DNA of 64,000 nt from Parcubacteria group bacterium LiPW_15 (GCA_007375645.1 VMER01000001.1:69139-133138); one strand, 5' to 3'; positions 2,197-50,503 are shown, counted from the stretch's first letter. Notes: a model not told the origin generated them from the sequence alone. A program made the numbers and translations.

Positions 2197-2570
2197 TTTG
2201 TTGTTGGCAATCCGTAAGCCGGATTCTGTCGGGGACGATCATTTCTCTGGGCCATAGATTGCTCTATAGCTCAAGCGGGCACAAATCCGCCAGCTGGCGG
2301 AAGTACGACCCTTGCACCCAGTAAGGATTTTGCCGTTTCACCTCTTTGGTTTCCCAAAAAGCTCGCCAAGCACAAAATAAATTCTATGCTCGGCGCCTTG
2401 ACCCTTTCGAGTTTCGGCGTCTCTGCTCGCACCTCTATCCTTGCGGACGACGGCCGTTAGCCGCTACTTTTTTACCTAGCACACAAAGTGCTGCGGTGGT
2501 GTCCGGACTTTCCTCCCCCTAAGTTGTCTTGCGACGACCGGGAGCGATCGCCTGTATTACCAACTTTAGT
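2197..2570 (-). ncRNA. rnpB: RNase P RNA, bacterial type A
   Basis: minus-strand GGAGGAAAGTCCGGAC (P4 5-prime strand, RC of 2494-2509) and ACAGAATCCGGCTTAC (P4 3-prime strand, RC of 2214-2229); P1 pairing gttggtaat/attgccaac between ends; TGTATAAT extended -10 just upstream. Confidence 0.8.
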
Positions 2571-11593: not shown

Positions 11594-11766
11594 TATCTTC
11601 ACGTGCGGACATCGGTCCGTCCGTTTGTTTCTTTGACATGCTAATAGGTAAAGGTTCAATAAAAAAGAGAGTTTTTTAGTTGTTCCAATTGTGTTTTAAA
11701 ATTGCCTCAAAATTTATTTTGAGAGCGAATCTGGGAGAAGCCTTCGGGCTACTCTAAGATTTTTAT

Positions 11767-13300
11767 GAGGATTTGATCCTGGTCCAGGATGAACGCTGGC
11801 GGTGTGGATAAGGCATGCAAGTCGAGCGGAACTAATTTTGAAGAAGTTGAGATTACATCAAGGCGACGGATTTATTAGTTTAGCGGCGAACGAGTTAGTA
11901 ACACCCTAGTCACGTACCCCGAAGTCAGAGATAGTCCGCCGAAAGGCGGGGTAATACCTGATATTGTCGCAAGACGAAAGCCGCAAGGCGCTTCGGGATC
12001 GGCTTAGGTCCGATCAGCTAGTTGGTAAGGTAACGGCTTACCAAGGCTATGACCGGTAGGGGAGGTGAGAGCCTGACCCCCAACGACGAGACTGAGACAC
12101 GGCTCGTACTCCTACGGGAGGCAGCAGTCGAGAATATTCGACAATGGGCGAAAGCCTGATCGAGCGACACCGCGTGCAGGATGAAGGCCTTCGGGTCGTA
12201 AACTGCGGTAACAAGACTGCAACTCAAGTGAGCGTCTTGTGAGAAGAGGTGGGTAACTACGTGCCAGCACCAGCGGTAATACGTAGACCTCAAGCGTTAT
12301 CCGGATTTATTGGGCGTAAAGCGCATGTAGGAGGTTTTGTGCGTCCTTGGTTAAAGCCCACCGCTCAACGGTGGAAGTGCCCGGGATACGGCAGAACTAG
12401 AGGGAGTTAGAGGTGAATGGAACCCACGGTGTAGGGGTGAAATCCGTTGATATCGTGGGGAACACCAAAGGCGAAGGCAGTTCACTGGGACTTTCCTGAC
12501 TCTGAGATGCGAAAGCGTGGGGAGCAAAAAGGATTAGATACCCTTGTAGTCCACGCCCTAAACGATGTCTGTTAGCTGTTTCGAGTATCGACCCTCGGGG
12601 TGGCGTAGCTAACGCGTTAAACAGACCGCCTGGGAAGTACGAGCGCAAGCTTAAAACTCAAAGGAATAGACGGGGACTCGCACAAGCGGTGGAACATGAG
12701 GTTTAATTCGACGGTACGCGAGGAACCTTACCAGGGTTTGAAATTCTAGGTGAAAGCCGATGGAAACATTGGCCCTCTCTCAAGGACGCCTAGTTCAGGT
12801 GCTGCATGGTTGTCGTCAGCTCGTGCCGTGAGGCGTTCCCTTAATTGGGGTAACGAGCGCAACCCCTGCCACGTGTTACAAGTGTCACGTGGAACTGCCC
12901 AGCTCCAAGATCGGGATTTTTAATAATCGTGATTTTAGAGCTGGGAGGAAGGAGGGGATGACGTCAAATCCGCATGGCCCTTTGATACCCTGGGCTACAC
13001 TCATGTTACAATGGTCAAGACAGCGGGCTGCCAAGCCGTAAGGCGGAGCCAATCTCTAAAACTTGACCCCAGTTCGGATTGGGGGCTGCAACTCGCCCCC
13101 ATGAAGCCGGAATCGCTAGTAATCGCGGATCAGCAACGCCGCGGTGAATACGTTCTCGAGTCCTGTACTCACCGCCCGTCACGCCAAGGGAGCCGGTAAT
13201 AGGTGAAGTTCGTTTACGCGAATCAGCCTAGGATCGGTGACATGGGCGAAGTCGTAACAAGGCACGCGTAGCGGAAGCTGTGCGTGAATCAATTAAACTA
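11767..13300 (+). rRNA. rrs: 16S ribosomal RNA (not followed by 23S in this window)
   Basis: TTTGATCCTGG..GATGAACGCTGGCGG at 5-prime end, GTGCCAGCACCAGCGGTAATAC, AAACTCAAAGGAATAGACGG, GTCGTAACAAGG near 3-prime end; exact 3-prime terminus uncertain. Confidence 0.9.
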
Positions 13301-14843: not shown

Positions 14844-15491
14844 ATGAAGCCGCTTGGAAAAGTAAATCTAAAATGGTCTCCGGATTTTGCTTATGCGTTG
14901 GGCCTTTTGGCGACTGACGGAAATTTATCTCTGGATGGTAGGCACATAGATCTAACTTCTAAAGATAATGAACAACTTGGAAATTTTTTACGGTGCCTAA
15001 AAATAGCTAATAAAATTGGCTCTAAATATTCCGGTTCCGGTAGAAAATATTTTCGAGTACAAATTGGAGACATAAATTTTTACAAATTTCTTCTTAATGT
15101 CGGGTTTATGCCGGCCAAATCCAAAATTATATCTAAATTGGATATTCCGGATAAGTACTTCTTTGATTTTCTCCGCGGCCATTTTGATGGTGATGGAACT
15201 TTTTATTCTTATCGAGATGCGCGCTGGAGGAATAGTTTTATGTTTTACACAGTTTTTGTTTCCGCAAGCATGGCTCATCTAAAATGGCTAAGAAATAAGC
15301 TTTTTGATAACTTAGATATAAGCGGACACATTTCTTCCAGCAAAAATAGAAGCGCGCATGAGCTCAGGTATGCCAAGGCGGAATCATTGAAATTATTACC
15401 GAAGCTGTATTATAATCCATTGGTAATTTGTTTATCCCGAAAGAGAAACAAGGTAGAGGGGGTATTGGCTTCACAGGGTAAAAAATTATGA
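14844..15491 (+). CDS. single-chain LAGLIDADG homing endonuclease, free-standing
   Basis: two LAGLIDADG motifs: LAYALGLLATDGNL and FLRGHFDGDGTF; not inside an rRNA or intron. Confidence 0.8.
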   Translation: MKPLGKVNLKWSPDFAYALGLLATDGNLSLDGRHIDLTSKDNEQLGNFLRCLKIANKIGSKYSGSGRKYFRVQIGDINFYKFLLNVGFMPAKSKIISKLDIPDKYFFDFLRGHFDGDGTFYSYRDARWRNSFMFYTVFVSASMAHLKWLRNKLFDNLDISGHISSSKNRSAHELRYAKAESLKLLPKLYYNPLVICLSRKRNKVEGVLASQGKKL

Positions 15492-15492
15492 G

Positions 15493-17040
15493 TTATATGC
15501 GCGGGTGGCGAAACTGGCAGACGCACATCCTTGAGATGGATGCGCCCGCAAGGGCTTGCAGGTTCAACTCCTGTCCCGCGCACAAGTTGTCAAAAGTAGG
15601 GTTTTCAGCCATTTTTGCGATTATCGAAAATGGTTTTTTGTATTGATATTCCTGCACATTCTGGCTTTTGATAGAAAGGTTCCAAAGTAAATTTTGAGCA
15701 ATAATTCTTCTTTGCTCTGGAGAAGATTCCAAATATTGTTTTTCCTTTTTATTGCTTGATAAAAACAGCTCTTTTGTCGGTTCCAAAGTACTTCCGGGTT
15801 GTCGGTAGTCTGCGCCAAGTTGCTTAAGTTGGGATTCTAGTTCGACTCTCTTGTTGCCTAATTCAAGCAGTTTTTGCCTATAGACGGCTTCGGGCGTTAC
15901 TCCGTCGATAAAACTATCAACCAAGCGAGATTGTTTATCCTGAAGCGATATAAGTTGTTTTTCGATAGATTCCTGAATTGGTTCCATAGACTGACCTTGC
16001 CCGGCAAGTTTCTCTTTTGCGGCTTGATACATAACCTCAATAAGATCTTCACTCAATTGAAGTTTTCTGAGAGCCTCGGCAACAAAGGCATCAAGAGTTT
16101 CTGAGCGCATATACTTCTTATGCTCCACACAATTTCCTCTGCCATTTGTGCAGTAGTAATAATCATGTCCCTTTTTATGGGTGGCAGTTAATGCACAACC
16201 ACAATTGGCACAAGAAAATATTCCTCGCAAATGAAAAAACAATCCTTTGGGTCGCGTTGCCCTAAGTCGCCCGATAAAAACATCTGAGGCACGATCAAAT
16301 AACTCTTTGGAAATTAATGGTTCATGTTTGCCAGGATAATACTTTCCATCCTTTACCATCATTCCGTAATAAAATGGGTTCTTTAGAATCTTTTGAATGC
16401 GCGAGCGATGAACTTTGTTACCCCTACCGCTTCTAAGACCCTGTTTATAAAACAAATCAGTTATGTCTTCTAGGCTATAGTTTCCGGTGGCATAAGTTTC
16501 AAACATCTTTTTTACATACGGAGCCAAGATAGGGTCGTGGAATATGGTTTTGTCCGCTTTATTATTCTTATACCCAAATGGAGCCATTTGAGGCCATCCG
16601 CCGGCTTCAAGCTTTGCTTTGTTACCACGCTTAACGTTCTTAGAGAGGTCATCAATATACTTTTGAGCCATACCAAATTCTAAATACATGAGGATAGAGT
16701 TTTCATCATCTCGCCGGTAAGACTGCGCCGGAGTAATAATCTCTAAGTCATTCTGTTTAATAGCCCATATAAGACCGCCACCATCAATAGGATTCCTAGA
16801 GAGACGATCGAGCTTCCAGCAGACAATGCCTCGAATCTTCTTTTTAGTTACATAATCAAGCATCTGCCCAAATATTGGGCGGCCGGGTGCTTTCGCAGAT
16901 TGAGACTCAGTAAATATTTTTTCAATTTCTAATCCTCGGCGAGCGGCAAATTCTTCAAGCTCTTTTACTTGAGCAGGGATAGATAGAATTTGTCGACCCT
17001 CGTCTTCGGTGCTTTTCCGGCAATAGATAATATATTTCAT
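15493..17040 (-). CDS. large serine recombinase (integrase)
   Basis: N-terminal resolvase domain IYCRKSTEDEGRQ..SIPAQ, recombinase domain, Cys cluster CANCGC..C..C, C-terminal coiled coil; 515 aa. Confidence 0.85.
   Translation of the reverse strand: MKYIIYCRKSTEDEGRQILSIPAQVKELEEFAARRGLEIEKIFTESQSAKAPGRPIFGQMLDYVTKKKIRGIVCWKLDRLSRNPIDGGGLIWAIKQNDLEIITPAQSYRRDDENSILMYLEFGMAQKYIDDLSKNVKRGNKAKLEAGGWPQMAPFGYKNNKADKTIFHDPILAPYVKKMFETYATGNYSLEDITDLFYKQGLRSGRGNKVHRSRIQKILKNPFYYGMMVKDGKYYPGKHEPLISKELFDRASDVFIGRLRATRPKGLFFHLRGIFSCANCGCALTATHKKGHDYYYCTNGRGNCVEHKKYMRSETLDAFVAEALRKLQLSEDLIEVMYQAAKEKLAGQGQSMEPIQESIEKQLISLQDKQSRLVDSFIDGVTPEAVYRQKLLELGNKRVELESQLKQLGADYRQPGSTLEPTKELFLSSNKKEKQYLESSPEQRRIIAQNLLWNLSIKSQNVQEYQYKKPFSIIAKMAENPTFDNLCAGQELNLQALAGASISRMCVCQFRHPRI
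15499..15582 (+). tRNA. tRNA-Leu (anticodon GAG), class II with long variable arm
   Basis: hand-folded: acceptor GCGCGGG/CCCGCGC, D-stem GCG/CGC, anticodon stem CATCC/GGATG with loop TTGAGAT, long variable arm, T-arm GCAGG-TTCAACT-CCTGT, discriminator A. Confidence 0.85.
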
Positions 17041-17792
17041 TGTTTTTGTGGTTCGTATCCTTGAATATATGTTTTCTTTGTAACTTGTCCCAGAAACTGG
17101 TGTTCTCGGCTAAACTCTCTGGCGGGTTTTTTAACAGAATAGCGTTCGGCTAAATAATCCGCAAACTTGTTCCGAATAATCAGATCGGCTGGGAAGCCAC
17201 GTGAGATCCTTAAAAGTCTCATAGCATTAAACATAACTTGGTTTTTGGACTTGGTTACATATTTGCTAATGTAATATGCCAACTTTCCAGAACCGTCAGT
17301 TTTTGTCGCATCCACATAACCCTCTCCCCAAATGCCAGCGAGGATTCTCGTTTTACGTTCGTCACCGATGGAAACAGTCCGTCCACCTTGGCGCGTATCA
17401 CCAAGAGACAACGGCACGTTAAAAATAAGACCATGGAAATGTATTCTTCCTCTTGGGGAGAGTTCGGGAACAAAGAGAGATTCCGCTTTAGGATATTTAG
17501 ATCGCAACCGCACCTGGAAGACGCGAAGTGAATCGTTTGCATATGAGGCATCTGAGGCGTCGCCTTTAAAGGTGAGAGTAACCAACAACGGAGTCCCAAA
17601 TTCTGCAAGGCCAGCAAACACGCGCCGCACACATATTTGTCGAGTCCGCCGAGCATTATCGGGTCGCCTAGCTCCGAATAAAACATGCCTTTTTCTGGGA
17701 GAGTATAAATGTATTTTGGGCGGTTCTTTTTCAAACCATGTGATTTCTGTGAGTTTCCCATTATTTCTAAAGATTGTAGGCATATTTAACAA
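17037..17792 (-). CDS. rolling-circle replication initiator, HUH endonuclease (Rep_1/phiX-A-like)
   Basis: motif I LLVTLTF, motif II RIHFHGLIF (HUH), motif III YYISKYVTKSK (Y-x-x-K-Y-x-x-K); 4-nt overlap with recombinase gene. Confidence 0.7.
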   Translation of the reverse strand: MLNMPTIFRNNGKLTEITWFEKEPPKIHLYSPRKRHVLFGARRPDNARRTRQICVRRVFAGLAEFGTPLLVTLTFKGDASDASYANDSLRVFQVRLRSKYPKAESLFVPELSPRGRIHFHGLIFNVPLSLGDTRQGGRTVSIGDERKTRILAGIWGEGYVDATKTDGSGKLAYYISKYVTKSKNQVMFNAMRLLRISRGFPADLIIRNKFADYLAERYSVKKPAREFSREHQFLGQVTKKTYIQGYEPQKQ

Positions 17793-18068
17793 CTATGAGG
17801 GTATATCAAGTCAGGCGAGGGAATCCCTCCCGCCTTCGGCGGTCGGGATTCCCTCGCGGACTCGGAAGGAAGGGGATAGAAGGCCAAAAAAAAGTCAACC
17901 AGGTCATCCAGGTATTCAAGAGCTTGATCACGGGAAAGAACTAGGTTGTAGTCCCGCTTAAAGATTCTGGTTATCTCGACAATTAGTGGTTCGCTATACT
18001 GCGTCATAAAAAAATAGGCTTTTTCGGAAGCCTATTCTTTTGAGCCGTGATTCACTTTCGTTCGCCGG

Positions 18069-18650
18069 TTAAAGTAGCCTATAAACTGACTTACCTCGCC
18101 ATTCTAGAAGCATGAGACCCGGAGCTTCGTCCTGAAATTTATCGTTAATTGCCCGAACAGTGTCTGAGATTGATTTTCTTGCCTTTTCCTTTTCGCCCGC
18201 TTCCTTACCCACGACTTCTTCATAAAGAACATCCCAGCTTATCGGTGTATTTATTTTCTGGCCGAACATAAATTTAAGAAGATACGCTTGGCGACTATCT
18301 GGTTCAATCTTAATTTCCTTCCCGCCGTAAAAGAGAATTGTCTGGTTCACATCGTAACTAACGCCGTAAACCTTTTCGTTTTTAAGCTCTCCCTTTTTGA
18401 ACTTCTCAAACCTGTCTTTGTCGATATCAAACATATACAACACATCTTCCAAAGCACCCTTTTCATTACTAGTCGGAACATCGGCAGTGTCGAAAAGGCC
18501 AATTATGCCCAAGCCCTTAAGTTCGTAAAGTAGGGCTTCCATATTTTTCGAACGACCCTCTAGAATGCTTACATTCTTGCGGTTCGGGAAATGAATCAAA
18601 AAATTATTGATTTTGCCTATCAGCTCTTGCATTTCGCCACTCATGTTCAT
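18069..18650 (-). CDS. hypothetical protein with C-terminal OmpR/PhoB-type winged-helix
   Basis: C-terminal SISDTVRAINDKF..LLEWRGKSVYRL resembles trans_reg_C. Confidence 0.4.
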   Translation of the reverse strand: MNMSGEMQELIGKINNFLIHFPNRKNVSILEGRSKNMEALLYELKGLGIIGLFDTADVPTSNEKGALEDVLYMFDIDKDRFEKFKKGELKNEKVYGVSYDVNQTILFYGGKEIKIEPDSRQAYLLKFMFGQKINTPISWDVLYEEVVGKEAGEKEKARKSISDTVRAINDKFQDEAPGLMLLEWRGKSVYRLL

Positions 18651-18802
18651 GTTGAAAAAATAGCGGATTTATTGGATAATTTCAATACAACTGAATAACG
18701 GCCTAAACCGCTTAGCGATAGGTGGCATGGTCAAAAAACTTTCGAGGGCATCAAGCTCCTAGTCAGAGCACCCTCGAAAGTCATACCCCGAAAGGAGTAT
18801 GG

Positions 18803-19333
18803 GTGTCGCAAGACATCGCTGGCTGGGAGCTTTATGTTTCTGGCCAAATAAAATACTACATGGACGCAAAGTTTATAAAACATTTAATAAAGGGAAAAAT
18901 CGCCGAGATTATTTTTGAGCAAATGTTTCGTGAATCAGGGAAATATACAATTCTTCATTCCGGCTACGAATACACCCTGCCCGAGCTGGCTCAATATCAG
19001 CATCTTACGGAAGTGAAGGCCGTAATAGAAAATATCAAAAATGCGCCGGATTTCGTATTAATATCACAAGACAAAAAGGAAGTTCACTTGGTGGAGGTCA
19101 AATATCGCGACCCTAGAAGGCCGGAAGACTTGAAAGAAATAGTCGGAAAAACCTTAGAGATTTGGAATCCATCTTGGCTGTTTGTTGCATCACCTGACGG
19201 ATTTTTCTTTGAACCCTGCAACACAGTTTTAAGAAATAACGGGAATATTGAACGAATGTATGCAAGGTGGGTTGACCCTAAAATCCAGGAAGAATACCTC
19301 AAGCTGCTCAACCAATTTGAGCTGAAAGGATAG
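18803..19333 (+). CDS. PD-(D/E)xK-fold nuclease-like protein (start uncertain, ORF opens at 18722)
   Basis: APDFVLI ... VHLVEVKYR (D ... ExK); SD aaaggag 5 nt before in-frame GTG at 18803. Confidence 0.45.
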   Translation: MSQDIAGWELYVSGQIKYYMDAKFIKHLIKGKIAEIIFEQMFRESGKYTILHSGYEYTLPELAQYQHLTEVKAVIENIKNAPDFVLISQDKKEVHLVEVKYRDPRRPEDLKEIVGKTLEIWNPSWLFVASPDGFFFEPCNTVLRNNGNIERMYARWVDPKIQEEYLKLLNQFELKG

Positions 19334-19391
19334 CAATATTGTTGTGCTGACTTAATTTGCCTAGTTGAAAAGCGAGGGGTAGTATTTGGTT

Positions 19392-21011
19392 ATGAGAATT
19401 TCGAAAATAAAAATTACAAACTTTAGGTCTATAAAAGAAGCCGAAATATTACCTACGGGTTTTAACGTTTTTGTTGGTCAGAATAATCACGGGAAAACCA
19501 ATTTTTTTGAAGCCATAGACTGGTTTTTTACTGGGCCCAAAAAAGGAGAAGGTTTGGAAAAAATAAGATTTGGAAGATCTGGCGATGCAGAAATAGCAGT
19601 AGAAATAGAATTTACCGAAGCCCTGGATGGTGCCGAGAAAATGAAAAACGAAGGGAATAAAACAAAGATAAAACAAGCTCTCGGTGAGAACGATACAGTT
19701 TCGGTTCGGCGAAGTAGCTTGGATCCGAAAAAGCGTACCATTTCAATTGGAGGAGTAGAGTTAGAAAAAGCACCAACTGGATTCGATAATGCCTTGAATG
19801 ATTTTTTGCCAACCTTTCAATACGTCAGCACACAAATAAATCCACTTGATGTTGCCAAGTATGGCAAAAACACACCCATTGCAAATATGCTGTCCGGTGT
19901 GTTGTCGGCCATTCTCGAAAAAGATCCAACATACGCAGCTTTTAAAGAACAATTCGATAAGCTATTTACTGCTCCGGGGTCTTTAGTTCGCGTTGAATTA
20001 AACGAACTTAGTAAGCAAGTAAAGGTATATCTCGAAAAACAATTTCCAGATTGTCTGGAAGTAGCCTTTGAGGTATCACAACCAGTTTTTGAGGACTTAC
20101 TTAAAAATTTTGAAACCTCAATAGATGATGGGGTTTATACTAGCGCAGATGAAAAAGGAGACGGGATGCAAAGGGCCTTGATGCTTGCAATCATCCAAAC
20201 CTACGCAGATTTTAGGAGAGAAAACGAGGAAACTAGCAAATTCTTTCTTTTCTTTATTGACGAAGGAGAACTCCACTTGCATCCCACCGCGCAGAGAAAA
20301 CTTAAAAATGCCCTGCTAGAACTGTCTCGAGGTGGTGACCAAATCTTTTTAAACACCCATTCGTCAGTTTTGATTTCTGACGAAACCGAGGGGCAAACGA
20401 TATTCAAAGTTGAAAAAATTAAAAGCGAAACGAGCATTGTTCCCGTAAAGGAAGACGAGAAGCGCTACATAGTATATGAACTGCTTGGCGGTAGTCCAGC
20501 GGATCTTCTTTTGCCCAGAAATTTTCTCATAGTTGAAGGTAAAAGTGAATATGAATTTTTATCTCGTGTGATTGCAAGATTTTATGTGGATAAACCTAAG
20601 GTTCAGATTATTTATGCCGAAGGCAACCATGAGAGACAGCGACAAACAATGGAAGGAATAAATAAGGTTTATGTGCCGCTTTTTGCAAATCCGGTATACA
20701 GAGATAAGCTAATTATCCTTTGCGATACCCCAAGCGCAGAGGCGGCAACGAGCTTTGAAACTTTTAAAAGTACATACCCAGCCCTGACTTCAAACGGACA
20801 ACTTATTGTTAACCCTCTGCCCAGCCTGGAGGAATACTATCCATCTCCTTGGAAAAAAACAGATGTCGAGGTTAAAGCTATGGACGCAGACAAAAATGCG
20901 AAACTATTGCTGGCCAGAGAGGTTGGAAGTGGCATAACTCAGGCACAATTTGAAACGGATATGCCAATTGTCTTCCAAGCTCTCCAAGATTGTTGGTCGA
21001 AGGCCTACTAA
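19392..21011 (+). CDS. OLD-family ATP-dependent nuclease (ABC ATPase fused to Toprim)
   Basis: Walker A GQNNHGKTN, Walker B FFLFFIDEGELHLHP, H-loop FLNTHS, C-terminal Toprim-like LIVEGKSEYEF. Confidence 0.7.
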   Translation: MRISKIKITNFRSIKEAEILPTGFNVFVGQNNHGKTNFFEAIDWFFTGPKKGEGLEKIRFGRSGDAEIAVEIEFTEALDGAEKMKNEGNKTKIKQALGENDTVSVRRSSLDPKKRTISIGGVELEKAPTGFDNALNDFLPTFQYVSTQINPLDVAKYGKNTPIANMLSGVLSAILEKDPTYAAFKEQFDKLFTAPGSLVRVELNELSKQVKVYLEKQFPDCLEVAFEVSQPVFEDLLKNFETSIDDGVYTSADEKGDGMQRALMLAIIQTYADFRRENEETSKFFLFFIDEGELHLHPTAQRKLKNALLELSRGGDQIFLNTHSSVLISDETEGQTIFKVEKIKSETSIVPVKEDEKRYIVYELLGGSPADLLLPRNFLIVEGKSEYEFLSRVIARFYVDKPKVQIIYAEGNHERQRQTMEGINKVYVPLFANPVYRDKLIILCDTPSAEAATSFETFKSTYPALTSNGQLIVNPLPSLEEYYPSPWKKTDVEVKAMDADKNAKLLLAREVGSGITQAQFETDMPIVFQALQDCWSKAY

Positions 21012-21027
21012 TCTAAAGTTTCTAATT

Positions 21028-21357
21028 ATGAGAATAAAAGATCTATTTAAATCAACCGGCATTTCGCAATCATTCGGAGGCGTAGCTCCTCGATTGGATA
21101 AAAATAATTGTCGGGTTGAAAATAAGACCAAAAATGAAGACTCGGTGCTACTTCGTTTAAAAAGGATGTCAGACGGAGAGGAGGGAAATGCATATTTGAG
21201 GGTTCAAGAACAATTTTCAAGCATAACCCCGCAATTGCTTGGTTGGGCTTTTAATAGCAATAAAATTATTGGGCTTTCTCTAAACGAGCTGGACGACTTT
21301 GAAACAGGCCTTGAAATAGAAAATTTACAAGGACGACTTCGATTAATTACTGATTAA
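21028..21357 (+). CDS. hypothetical protein
   Basis: ORF only; no SD. Confidence 0.3.
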   Translation: MRIKDLFKSTGISQSFGGVAPRLDKNNCRVENKTKNEDSVLLRLKRMSDGEEGNAYLRVQEQFSSITPQLLGWAFNSNKIIGLSLNELDDFETGLEIENLQGRLRLITD

Positions 21358-21393
21358 AAAGGTTCCAACATCGTTCCATTCCGTGCAAAATAT
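21356..21393. repeat. R1: degenerate copy of tRNA-Leu 3-prime half (aaaaaggttccaacatcgttccattccgtgcaaaatat)
   Basis: about 85% identical to R2 over 40 nt. Confidence 0.55.
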
Positions 21394-21394
21394 T

Positions 21395-21886
21395 ATGATA
21401 CTACTTATTTTAACCTCAATACTCAAAGCAATAATTGCCTGGTTTATTATCACTTATGTCGGGACCAATCTCATTGGTTTTATTGGGAGGGGTCTTTGGG
21501 AAGAAAGATTGGATGTGAATAAATTAGATCTCTCTGATAATCCTATAAAGGATCTTGCAAAGAAAGAAATTAAAAGATGGAACAACTCTGGCGACATAAT
21601 AACCGGGTTATCATTTTTGGCTACAATAGGAATTTGTTATTACTTGTACAGTTATTGGGGAACTCTATTTTTGATTGCCATCATTATAACAATGGCAAGC
21701 AGGGCACCAGATCTTTATTGGGAGGTTCGCGTCCTTCCAAAACAATTAGGCATACCATATCCAGTTCCAAAAGATTTAATTCGGAAAGCAATAAAAGAAG
21801 ATAAAAACAAATCTTTATTTAAAACCCTACTAGGGCTTTCGAGTTTCGCAACGTTCGTAATTCTTTTTATAGCATTCTTTATTTAA
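21395..21886 (+). CDS. hypothetical 4-TM membrane protein bracketed by R1 and R2
   Basis: hydrophobic helices; ATG at 21395 after GTG-extended ORF from 21383. Confidence 0.45.
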   Translation: MILLILTSILKAIIAWFIITYVGTNLIGFIGRGLWEERLDVNKLDLSDNPIKDLAKKEIKRWNNSGDIITGLSFLATIGICYYLYSYWGTLFLIAIIITMASRAPDLYWEVRVLPKQLGIPYPVPKDLIRKAIKEDKNKSLFKTLLGLSSFATFVILFIAFFI

Positions 21887-21916
21887 TAAACTTGGTAGAA
21901 TTGATTAAACTGGCTC

Positions 21917-21955
21917 AAAAAGGTTCCAACATCGTCCCATCCCGCGCACAAAATA
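21917..21955. repeat. R2: attR-like degenerate copy of tRNA-Leu T-arm/acceptor 3-prime half (aaaaaggttccaacatcgtcccatcccgcgcacaaaata)
   Basis: aligns to tRNA 15561-15587; exact cccgcgcacaa. Confidence 0.55.
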
Positions 21956-22110
21956 AAAATACTACCCTCGCGGTAGTGTTTTTGTTTTCGTGTGTTGGAA
22001 GAAGAGGATTTGAACAAGGAGGAGGGGTCGGGAGGAAGCGTGGCGTCCTCCCGTGTCGGAGATTATTCTCGCCCCAAGAAGATTCCGCGTATAAGTTGTA
22101 TAATTAAAAT

Positions 22111-22581
22111 ATGAATAAAAATGGATTTGCTCCGATCGTTGTTGTCCTCTTGGTTGCCGTAGTCTTGGTTGCAGGCGGTATCGTGTATCAAGCCGGCAAA
22201 AATTCAAATCCCTCAAATGATCCAAGCGTGGAATCTGGCGCTCCGTTTATTGCCGTTATTTCGCCAAACGGAGGAGAAAAGTGGGCAGTCGGTGAAACGG
22301 TAAAGATCTCTTGGACAAGCAGTAACGATATAAAATTCGTAAATATCCGATTAAATATCTTAGGAAATCCCGATAGCCAGCACTTCAGCGCCTCCATCGC
22401 CTCCGACATTCCAAACACCGGTAACTATGAGTGGACGGTCAAAAAACTTTACGCCGAGGTTCTTGGCGTCACCGATCTGCCGATATCCGACAAGTATTCG
22501 ATTAGCGTGGAGGCCGCCGGAAATATTCATGATAGCAGTGACTCGACGTTCAGTATCGTTTCTTCGGTAAAATCAACTTAA
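22111..22581 (+). CDS. membrane-anchored or secreted protein with Ig-like beta-rich domain
   Basis: N-terminal TM FAPIVVVLLVAVVLVAGGIV; TTGTATAAT promoter upstream. Confidence 0.5.
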   Translation: MNKNGFAPIVVVLLVAVVLVAGGIVYQAGKNSNPSNDPSVESGAPFIAVISPNGGEKWAVGETVKISWTSSNDIKFVNIRLNILGNPDSQHFSASIASDIPNTGNYEWTVKKLYAEVLGVTDLPISDKYSISVEAAGNIHDSSDSTFSIVSSVKST

Positions 22582-22593
22582 ATTTTATAAAAA

Positions 22594-22941
22594 ATGGACA
22601 ACAAAATGGTTGAGTCAACAATGGTCACGACGGCGTTCGAGCTCGAGAATTATCAAATCGTAAATAATCTGGGAGTCGCGAAGGGGATAGTTGTTCGTTC
22701 CAGGTCCATCTTCGGATCTATTGGTGCAAGCCTACAGACAATAGTTGGCGGCAATATTTCTCTTTTCACAAAGCTTTGCGAAAAAACTCGCGCCGATGCG
22801 TTCGATCTAATGTTGGAGCATGCGGCAGATATGGGTGCTAACGCGGTTATCGGCGCCCGTTACGACGCGACGGAAATCATGGGAGGCGTGACCGAGGTTT
22901 TGGCCTATGGAACCGCGGTTGTGGTAGAACCAAAAAAATAA
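22594..22941 (+). CDS. YbjQ/UPF0145 (DUF74) family protein
   Basis: [22 protein letters not shown]....R..A......[16 protein letters not shown]...[16 protein letters not shown]. Confidence 0.75.
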
Positions 22942-23005
22942 ACGGTCAGACCTGCCAAGTATTAAAATCTTAAGACAAAAAAAGCCGGGCGTTACCCGGC
23001 GCGGC

Positions 23006-23209
23006 CTAGAAGATTTCGATGTGGACTTCTGCTAAGTACCTTTTGGACTTTCTTTTCCCTTCGAGTTTATCGAGTTGTTGCTGAACTTTTTCGAGTTGGT
23101 TTGCGAGATGAATGCCGGAGAAAGAGCCCCGTTTCGGAAGCTTTAGAAAAGCTTTCCAGATCTCGTCCCTTTTCTTCCGCAGTCTCAGGACTCTTTTGCT
23201 TGCGGTCAT
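23006..23209 (-). CDS. hypothetical small basic protein (67 aa), second gene of the operon
   Basis: SD aggag 7 nt before ATG, 9-nt gap to upstream gene; hairpin gccgggcgttacccggc plus T7 downstream. Confidence 0.4.
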   Translation of the reverse strand: MTASKRVLRLRKKRDEIWKAFLKLPKRGSFSGIHLANQLEKVQQQLDKLEGKRKSKRYLAEVHIEIF

Positions 23210-23218
23210 ACTGTTCTC

Positions 23219-23467
23219 CTACGTCGCGAATCTTCCGCTACCATAGTCGTCCTCGGGAGTCGTTAGCGCGCTTCTCGGGACGTCCAGGGGACCGAGCGAA
23301 ACGTTGTCGGGAATACCTTCTCCCGCGAGTTTCGCGGAAGCCCGCACGCCTTGCTCGACCGACTCTCGGATCATCTGTGCGAGTTCGACCTCGCTCATTT
23401 TGAGCCTGATCGGCGGACGATCGGTTCCATCACCGGCGATCACTTCATAACTGCGTTGTTTCAACAC
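23219..23467 (-). CDS. hypothetical small protein (82 aa, GTG start), first gene of a two-gene GC-rich operon
   Basis: SD gaaggggg 6 nt before GTG. Confidence 0.4.
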   Translation of the reverse strand: MLKQRSYEVIAGDGTDRPPIRLKMSEVELAQMIRESVEQGVRASAKLAGEGIPDNVSLGPLDVPRSALTTPEDDYGSGRFAT

Positions 23468-50420: not shown

Positions 50421-50432
50421 ATTTTGTTTTTG

Positions 50433-50503
50433 TGCCCCCACAAGGAATCGAACCTTGATCAATTGCTTAAAAGGCAACTGCTTTACCACTAAGCTATGGG
50501 GGC
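50433..50503 (-). tRNA. tRNA-Lys (anticodon TTT)
   Basis: RC folds: acceptor GCCCCCA/TGGGGGC, D-arm GCTTAGTGGTAAAGC, anticodon loop CTTTTAA, T-arm AAGGTTCGATTCCTT, discriminator A; CCA not encoded. Confidence 0.8.

Follow-up and report, generated by a model that had tools for sequence, protein, structure and literature searches.

A 6,366-bp insert (one copy of its core being counted) occupies positions 15586-21951 in a 64,000-nucleotide stretch of the genome of Parcubacteria group bacterium LiPW_15 (GCA_007375645.1 VMER01000001.1:69139-133138; this whole stretch is termed the window here, and positions are counted from its first letter). Very probably it is an integrative mini-plasmid, an element with rolling-circle replication that a large serine recombinase placed at the 3′ end of a tRNA-Leu(GAG) gene. 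The coordinates of its parts are collected in Table 1; related loci and contigs are cited by handles that begin with L.

The limits of the insert are exact. The 11-mer CCCGCGCACAA, comprising the end of the tRNA gene and its first trailer bases, is present in just two copies in the window, at 15575-15585 and 21941-21951, and the boundaries fall precisely at these copies. A scan of metagenome contigs with the last 22 nt of this tRNA yielded a contig, L134, that is the empty site of the insert: in it the tRNA end is followed directly by CAAAATAAAAATACTACCCTCGCGGTAGTGTTTTTG..., the terminator, the gene that starts at 22111 in the window (100% identity, 140 amino acids) and a YbjQ gene (98%). Positions 46-1414 of L134 match window positions 21940-23308 at 99.2% identity over 1,369 bp with no gap, while its positions 1-57 align to the 3′ part of the tRNA at 15529-15585. 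Insertion has thereby displaced the terminator of tRNA-Leu by 6.4 kb. As the right attachment (att) site, attR, shares just 12 nt with a tRNA-Leu gene, an assembly chimera is unlikely at the usual k-mer sizes. The insert is also foreign in composition, with a GC content of 0.405 against 0.482 +/- 0.010 (minimum 0.447) in other 6.4-kb segments and a tetranucleotide distance of 0.304 against 0.119 +/- 0.008 elsewhere. The initial annotation, made from the sequence of the window, had proposed an element inserted at a tRNA-Leu(GAG) at 15499-15582 and an exact 11-mer shared by the tRNA end and a repeat to its right (R2); tRNA, 11-mer and insertion are all borne out, the last of them by the empty site and the compositional contrast together.

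The T-arm and the acceptor 3′ strand of the tRNA, within which GGTTCAAC stands at 15561-15568, constitute the B half-site of attB and of attL, and the predicted attB junction for this insert reads ...CCTGTCCCGCGCACAAAATAAAAATACTACC. A terminator-like hairpin with a T-run was also picked up by a terminator scan at 15607-15635, 24 nt past the tRNA and within the recombinase coding region. It may end transcription of the tRNA in place of the displaced terminator, and may limit antisense read-through into the recombinase gene.

The recombinase is encoded on the strand opposite to the tRNA, with its last codons overlapping it, as had been annotated. Searches with hidden Markov models (HMMs) of Pfam and PHROG confirm its domain content: Resolvase (PF00239, 84.6 bits), Recombinase (PF07508, 60.4 bits) and Zn_ribbon_recom (PF13408, 33.4 bits), all above their cut-offs. 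Residues Y6, R8, S10, Q17, R54, D78, R79 and R82 are invariant among 59 homologues, as is a cysteine cluster (C277, C280, C282, C297 and C304); a coiled coil in the zinc-ribbon domain is suggested by inspection of the sequence, and the nearest solved structure is that of the SPbeta integrase (E=3e-8). No open reading frame (ORF) of the insert has a match to Phage_integrase, the tyrosine recombinase family, in the Pfam scan.

It is the C-terminus of this protein that discloses how the att sites are organized. Over its last ~29 codons the gene runs antisense to the tRNA, LCAG being residues 486-489 and the residues beyond it being antisense-tRNA codons. Most homologues end in the same manner, as antisense-tRNA translation in one conserved frame (...ML(R/P)(D/G)LDSNQD... 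or ...RDSNPQLLP, where DSN is GAT TCG AAC, the reverse complement of the T-loop), and a minority have another conserved tail, ...W(D/E)(D/E)V(R/G)TF.... Read on the opposite strand, R2 encodes LCAGWDDVGTFL, and the tail of the closest homologue (P0002, 66% identity), whose contig L002 is without a tRNA, reads ...LCAGWDDVRTFL. When the P′ arm, the core and the P arm of the window are joined, one continuous alignment to L002 results, with 38/39 identity across the junction, which far exceeds the similarity around it. Given this contiguity, and given that R2 encodes the native tail of the recombinase, attP has R2 as its P arm and the sequence from 15586 onward as its P′ arm; the predicted attP junction via R2 is ...CTTTTGACAACTTGTGCGCGGGATGGGACGATGTTGGAACC. 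On this evidence attP appears to lie inside the recombinase gene itself, and integration would exchange the tail of the protein for antisense-tRNA codons. The free form as reconstructed would have 507 amino acids and end in ...LCAGWDDVGTFLSQFNQFYQVY; integration takes out the last 18 residues and brings in 26 antisense-tRNA residues. The exchanged tail starts ~15 residues past the last conserved block (LLWNLS...K.PY) and so is probably dispensable for catalysis.

R2 had been annotated as a degenerate copy of the tRNA 3′ half, and a further repeat, R1, as a more diverged one. Neither description is retained. R2, in which GGTTCCAAC stands at 21922-21930 within the P arm of attR, is instead the attP arm that encodes the C-terminal tail of the recombinase. 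Its sequence TGGGACGATGTTGGAAC is conserved in relatives aimed at other tRNAs (tRNA-Gln, -Ser and -Tyr), and its resemblance to the T-arm seems to amount to a short recognition motif only, shifted by 5 bp. R1 aligns strongly to R2 (score 58 over 49 bp), reads FCTEWNDVGTFL in the recombinase-sense frame and retains G71-C72-A73 in its core-like segment, and is thus another att-like site, in good preservation, within the insert. It sits 561 bp inside R2 (21356-21404 as against 21917-21965) with just one ORF, membrane-like, between the two, and the empty site is without both the R1-R2 segment and the remaining insert. A like pair of sites is present in a tRNA-Gln element (L009, at ~6094 and ~6568, ~475 bp apart with one small ORF between), in L059 a second P arm stands 2.2 kb away from attP (3709 and 5903), and L012 (382, 2835 and 8061) and L018 are tandem arrays of full copies. 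Pairs of P-arm sites that bracket one terminal gene suggest that a cassette was captured or that the stump of a tandem partner was left. R1 or R2 could each serve as attR; via R1 the predicted attP junction is ...GACAACTTGTGCACGGAATGGAACGATGTTGGAACC, and the recombinase tail predicted at a junction of attL with R1 is ...LCTEWNDVGTFLISN.

The use of tRNA 3′ ends extends to the family as a whole. The recombinase has >3,600 homologues at E<=1e-20, nearly all from Patescibacteria or metagenomes. A profile search with one genome per species gave at least 591 loci; 80 were retained, and 70 of these reach the gene end. In 60 of the 70 an antisense tRNA 3′ end is found 1,330-1,800 nt after the recombinase start (median 1,454, interquartile range 1,448-1,461), the offset in the window being 1,457 nt. 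Twelve isotypes are represented (Gln 25, Ser 16, Leu 5, Asn 4, Arg 2, Pro 2, and one each of Tyr, Trp, Lys, Asp, Val and Gly), and several of the other ten loci have tails of the attP type (L044, L051, L054 and L059). Rep is encoded directly upstream of the recombinase in 19-20 related loci, essentially the whole of the closest clade, and more distant tRNA-targeting relatives are without this Rep.

Relatives in circular form also exist. The 4,618-bp contig L175 has a 16-bp terminal repeat, and its ends are bridged by L176, a circular permutation from another sample that is 100% identical to it; the unit is 4,602 bp, circular or in head-to-tail tandem, and has Rep, recombinase and LOOT RNA and no tRNA. 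Its recombinase, 49% identical to that of the window, has an intact attP-type tail (LAVWYDVGTY), and the R2 counterpart is contiguous with the recombinase 3′ end there as it is in L002. L002 (6.6 kb) is probably a permuted circle, its p73 homologue being split across the contig ends. Terminal overlaps, the sign of a circular assembly, were looked for in L001-L007 and none was found, and a search of L003-L007 for the tRNA 3′ half repeated directly at the far element end gave nothing above chance, the shared cores there being only 4-9 bp. A collection of viral contigs scanned with the 17-nt P-arm motif gave 41 matches, none with a recombinase or Rep, so that all are taken as due to chance.

Comparison of the arms allows the geometry of the sites to be read. 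P arms, found in many loci, have the form ...TGGGAYGAWGTTGGAACNTTT or ...AAAATCCGAACTTTT at the DNA level, and since GAAC is essentially invariant in them, with the Arg/Gly codon almost always NGA, the constraint points to DNA rather than to protein. The offset of each tRNA/P-arm pair was set so that the common core became as long as possible. GAAC then stands 5 bp further from the core in the P arm than it does in the tRNA for 10 of 11 pairs whose core has at least 6 nt, and for 13 of 17 when cores of at least 5 nt are admitted. In the window, core and GAAC are separated by 9 nt in the tRNA (15566-15574), as against 14 nt in R2 (21927-21940). In serine integrases the motif for the zinc-ribbon domain (ZD) sits 5 bp nearer the centre in attB than in attP (PMC3783163), and the shift fits this rule, as far as the B and P arms, but not B′ and P′, are concerned. 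Shared cores are 11 bp here and 4-24 bp in relatives, and cores down to 4-6 bp are as expected of a serine recombinase, unlike the islands of tyrosine integrases. The cores of 11 elements intersect at 4 bp, 15-18 nt from GAAC, at tRNA positions 71-74, which here are GCAC at 15580-15583; crossover is accordingly placed within that tetranucleotide. With crossover at the very end of the tRNA, the tRNA would survive with no need for the element to carry a long copy of it.

The following course of events is proposed. In the free circle attP would lie in the recombinase 3′ end, its P′ arm encoding ...PTFDN, its core (TTGTGCGCGGG) LCAG, and its P arm WDDVGTFL..., while attB would consist of the tRNA T-loop, T-stem and acceptor 3′ strand as the B arm together with ~20 bp of trailer as the B′ arm. 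The recombinase would read a T-loop-like motif containing GAAC, probably through its zinc-ribbon domain, with that motif 5 bp nearer the crossover in the tRNA than in attP. Strand exchange would take place within G71-C72-A73-N74, so that the tRNA is rebuilt with identical bases and left intact, while its terminator would be moved away and 18 recombinase codons would be replaced by 26 antisense-tRNA codons. After excision, which presumably requires a directionality factor, the HUH Rep would replicate the circle.

Several points weigh against the account of an integrative mini-plasmid bounded by the tRNA and R2. By itself the similarity of the tRNA to R2 is barely above background: it is the best non-self match in the window, at a score of 26, but the margin over chance matches of 24 and 23 is narrow, and the alignment proposed in the initial annotation holds in that restricted sense. 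L134 and the window differ at 9/45 bases in the tRNA body (L134 1-45 against 15529-15573), so that L134 comes from a related strain, not the same one; and as L134 differs there while being 99.2% identical downstream of the core, the att site may be a breakpoint of recombination between strains. (The differences include the variable arm, CCCGCAAGGG against GGGGCAACCCC, where they are apparently compensatory, and the anticodon stem.) Little dyad symmetry relates the half-sites B′ and P′ to B and P, the origin used by Rep was not located, no directionality factor was identified, and no read-level evidence was obtained that this copy still excises. The lack of a directionality factor and of an observed excision product, with the alteration of the recombinase tail by integration, would also suit an immobilised or domesticated remnant, unable to excise and retained by the host for its defence genes. 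That is improbable, as recombinase and Rep ORFs are intact with all catalytic residues conserved, neither att site has decayed, genomes that differ by only 0.8% in the flank vary in whether they carry the insert, and 60 loci have a changed tail as their regular integrated form. There are, further, two candidate right ends, R1 and R2, and the autonomous element could have ended at R1 (~5.8 kb), with the 561 bp from R1 to R2 being a recombinase-less mini-cassette or tandem stump and R2 its attR. The good preservation of R1 as a P-arm site with G71-C72-A73, the closely spaced site pair of L009, the second P arm of L059 and the tandem arrays of L012 and L018 all lend this some substance. It is nevertheless the less likely choice, because the closest relative has an attP that agrees with R2, and not with R1, at 38/39 bases, because both segments are missing from the empty site, which allows for their joint arrival, and because the membrane-like ORF has no homologue in other loci.

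Two further explanations were weighed. Alignment of R2 to the T-arm and acceptor region and the 11-mer common to it and the tRNA are what would be seen in a classical tRNA island, in which a tRNA 3′-half copy comes with the element and R2 and R1 represent decaying, displaced fragments of the original tRNA, in the style of tyrosine integrases. The insert has no tyrosine recombinase, however, identity with the target is as short as 4-6 bp in relatives, the R2 sequence is kept in elements at tRNA-Gln, -Ser and -Tyr and so is not derived from tRNA-Leu, and in L002 and L175 R2 adjoins the recombinase 3′ end without a break; provided that the relatives are truly related, the contiguity in L002, the conservation of the P arm and the short cores refute such an island, to which hardly any credence is left. 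An integrated filamentous or other single-stranded DNA phage is suggested by the Rep matches to PF23343 and PHROG 3419, the ORF2/G2P family of Reps also being that of inoviruses and plectroviruses, and by the ability of phiRSM-type inoviruses to integrate at tRNAs with serine recombinases. It is very improbable: a morphogenesis ATPase (pI/Zot), genes resembling those for coat proteins and structural matches in PHROG are all absent, beyond Rep and recombinase the relatives, at 4.6-6.6 kb, have nothing but variable cargo, and the P-arm motif gave only chance matches in the viral contigs.

Table 1. Features of the insert and its flanks in the window, with the positions of LOOT RNAs in related loci
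Feature	Position	Strand	Basis or remark
Large serine recombinase, 515 aa in its integrated form	15493-17040	-	Pfam domains; PHROG 95 integrase 5e-87
tRNA-Leu(GAG), intact	15499-15583	+	ARAGORN; Rfam tRNA model 48.4 bits at 15499-15582
Left 11-bp core, CCCGCGCACAA	15575-15585	+	Acceptor positions 66-72, discriminator A73, three trailer bases
P′ arm of attL	15586-15640	+	Antisense of recombinase codons ...KMAENPTFDN; contiguous with R2 P arm in relative L002
HUH rolling-circle Rep, 251 aa	17037-17792	-	PF23343 REP_ORF2-G2P 46.6 bits; PHROG 3419
73-aa ORF upstream of Rep	17786-18007	-	Homologues precede Rep in L002-L008 and L020
193-aa ORF, no family	18069-18650	-	No matches in any library scanned
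LOOT RNA (Rfam RF03000)	18700-18817	+	90.9 bits (gathering score 46.4), model positions 1-121
Putative PD-(D/E)xK-fold protein, 157 aa	18860-19333	+	Homologues, invariant residues, AlphaFold model
OLD-family ABC-type ATPase, 541 aa	19386-21011	+	PADLOC Old 1.5e-59; AAA_15, AAA_21
135-aa ORF	20950-21357	+	Gene call; no family matches
R1, internal second att-like site	21356-21404	+	P arm, core-like segment, B′-like flank
Hydrophobic membrane-like ORF, 163/167 aa	21395-21886	+	Sole gene between R1 and R2
attR	21917-21972	+	P arm 21917-21940, core 21941-21951, B′ arm from 21952
Hairpin and T-run, original tRNA-Leu terminator	21961-21990	+	Adjoins tRNA in L134; terminator scan
LOOT RNA in related loci	L004 2085-2206; L010 9315-9425; L019 5938-6062; L020 6808-6924; L021 7863-7981
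LOOT RNA in related loci	L027 2300-2409; L033 6374-6496; L037 7390-7506; L051 11523-11639; L175 557-675

Among the backbone genes, the HUH Rep ends in a stop that overlaps the recombinase start by 4 nt. The PHROG family that it matches is described as 'rolling circle DNA replication initiation', and three Rep motifs are readable in its sequence (LVTLTF, HFHGLIF and AYYISKYVTK), so that its annotation as such a protein stands. The 73-aa ORF upstream of it, which could be assigned to no family, is a candidate for a regulator or a directionality factor. The winged helix-turn-helix label that had been given to the next ORF is left without support by the library scans and is dropped.

The first gene of the rightward operon had been called a PD-(D/E)xK nuclease. 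An alternative GTG start at 18803 would give a 176-aa version, but ATG 18860 is most likely the start because 485 homologues, at 60-85% identity, are 156-160 amino acids long. D64, E79 and K81 are invariant among them, and the AlphaFold model (predicted local distance difference test score 91.5) has a fold that matches only PD-(D/E)xK nucleases (Hjc, RecU and PA-N), with weak matches of E=8.6e-4 at best and template modelling scores of 0.36-0.51; the ORF gave no significant HMM match. The protein thus probably has a restriction-endonuclease-like fold with a D...(D/E)xK motif, and the nuclease label is kept as a putative one. Its family is unusually conserved in Patescibacteria, in varied contexts (L178-L181), for instance near a reverse transcriptase and bAvd gene in L178. 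For the neighbouring gene, annotated as an OLD-family ATPase-Toprim nuclease, the ATPase part is secure (AAA_15 at 112.5 bits), while the C-terminal Toprim domain is putative, OLD-like_TOPRIM scoring 15 bits, below the cut-off of 23.2 (E=0.038), and the PADLOC Old match stopping at model position 423 of 578. By family membership the two proteins are probably an anti-phage or anti-plasmid module. Homologues of both are also known from L027 and L024, which belong to the same element family, and the 157-aa family is also found without OLD, LOOT or recombinase. Cargo in relatives is often defence-like, with Mrr_cat, McrB_N and NucS-like genes in L002 and GmrSD, ThsB-TIR, methylases and HNH in L177. 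The membrane-like ORF, whose hydrophobic segments were read from sequence, has no homologue in the related loci.

In the intergenic hub from which the operons diverge, 43 nt upstream of the nuclease-like gene, lies a LOOT RNA, just downstream of a promoter-like site at 18652-18680 (promoter scan). LOOT was also found, at 73-91 bits, in 11 of 29 related loci scanned, 19 of which were not pre-screened while the other ten include six picked for LOOT motifs. It is a recurrent part of the elements with Rep and serine recombinase, including the free 4.6-kb circle. In the nine loci whose ORF context was checked it is always in the hub between backbone and cargo operons, and in most of them an ORF of the same strand begins ~30-70 nt further on. 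Its orientation relative to Rep varies, and the genes that follow it are unrelated to one another. A tie to the PD-(D/E)xK gene was considered and rejected: LOOT precedes that gene here and in L027, unrelated genes follow it elsewhere, and homologues of the gene occur without LOOT. A literature search found no published function for it; it could act as a leader or small RNA of the element, or else as a structured origin.

Some features of the flanks deserve mention. A free-standing LAGLIDADG endonuclease ORF (14844-15491) of low GC content (0.367) ends 8 nt before tRNA-Leu; it was considered as a part of the island on account of its composition, and this was rejected, its position upstream of tRNA-Leu(GAG) being conserved in L149, L154 and L167 (54-66% identity), which makes it chromosomal. 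In many unrelated contigs part of the tRNA-Leu 3′ end is repeated in inverted orientation (e.g. GCGGGACAGGAGTTGAAC) just past the terminator, 45-55 nt after tRNA-Leu in L132, L135, L154, L158, L160, L168 and L170; the version in the window, at ~22003-22020, is degenerate (GAGGATTTGAAC) and is overlapped by a weak ylbH-leader match (E=0.5). In L167 a P-arm-like GGTTCCAACATCGCCCGCC stands 30 nt after an element-free tRNA-Leu, and may be the scar of a lost element. Elsewhere in the window are an RNase P RNA at 2200-2563 (minus strand, 120.6 bits), a tRNA-Lys(ttt) at 50432-50503 (minus strand) and a complete, insertion-free 16S rRNA at 11761-13299 with no 23S rRNA after it.

Parallels to several known systems are apparent, none of them complete. 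The recombinase has the same three-domain architecture as the phage-type large serine integrases (Listeria A118/LI, SPbeta SprA/YokA, phiC31 and Bxb1), which likewise have attP and attB without long identity and the recognition motif 5 bp further out in attP. Those enzymes have protein-coding targets and are carried by phages, whereas here the target is a tRNA, attP is inside the integrase ORF, the C-terminus is swapped, and the carrier is a plasmid-like element of 4.6-6.6 kb with Rep in Patescibacteria. In the SSV1-type archaeal integrases, attP is within the integrase gene and integration at a tRNA alters the integrase ORF. The SSV1 enzyme is a tyrosine recombinase whose gene is split into two non-functional halves, in contrast to the exchange of a short C-terminal tail with the enzyme core left intact here.

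Integrase and rolling-circle Rep are combined with tRNA integration in the actinomycete integrative and conjugative elements of the pSAM2 type. A faint Pfam RepSA match is seen on related Reps of the present family, but the tyrosine integrase with Xis, the FtsK-like transfer genes and the size of 9-24 kb that characterize those elements do not apply here. A rolling-circle Rep, a serine recombinase and tRNA integration are found together in phiRSM. There, unlike in the present element, the recombinase is small and resolvase-like and the carrier is a virus with coat and assembly genes. In the tycheposons of Prochlorococcus, 27 of 937 elements carry a large serine recombinase. Tycheposons resemble the present elements in being small, integrative and associated with tRNAs and in having replication genes and defence or niche cargo, though most have tyrosine recombinases and primase/helicase modules, and an attP inside an ORF or a reading of the T-loop is not reported for them. 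The tRNA islands of the Islander/TIGER type share with the present element the insertion at a tRNA 3′ end, preservation of the tRNA, an adjacent integrase and accessory or defence cargo, but they use a tyrosine integrase; the present insert has a serine recombinase and no long duplicated tRNA segment. The use of tRNA genes by serine integrases was called unreported and unproven in 2020 in a paper that also mentions the integrative inoviruses of the phiRSM type (Mageeney et al., PMC7192596).

A literature search found no description of this element family, its coverage being incomplete and an earlier description possible. The wider proposal, put forward tentatively and with somewhat less than an even chance of holding, is that of a large, hitherto undescribed family of integrative replicons in Patescibacteria, whose serine integrases are specialised on the T-loop and acceptor end of tRNAs, have attP in their own gene and have been retargeted among at least 12 tRNA types, with integron-like capture of cassettes through extra att-like sites (R1/R2, L009 and L059) and with LOOT as a leader or replication origin.

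Genes for tRNAs are the classic targets of tyrosine integrases, and here a whole clade of serine integrases uses them, with an att geometry that is readable from sequence alone. The clade offers a natural series of related serine integrases with different, predictable targets of 40-50 bp, useful for understanding specificity and for engineering it. The orphan LOOT RNA gains a genomic home. Mobile elements are poorly known in Patescibacteria, and in the reduced genomes of these bacteria the family is a major vehicle of defence genes, including OLD, Mrr/McrB-like, GmrSD, Thoeris-TIR and restriction-modification genes.

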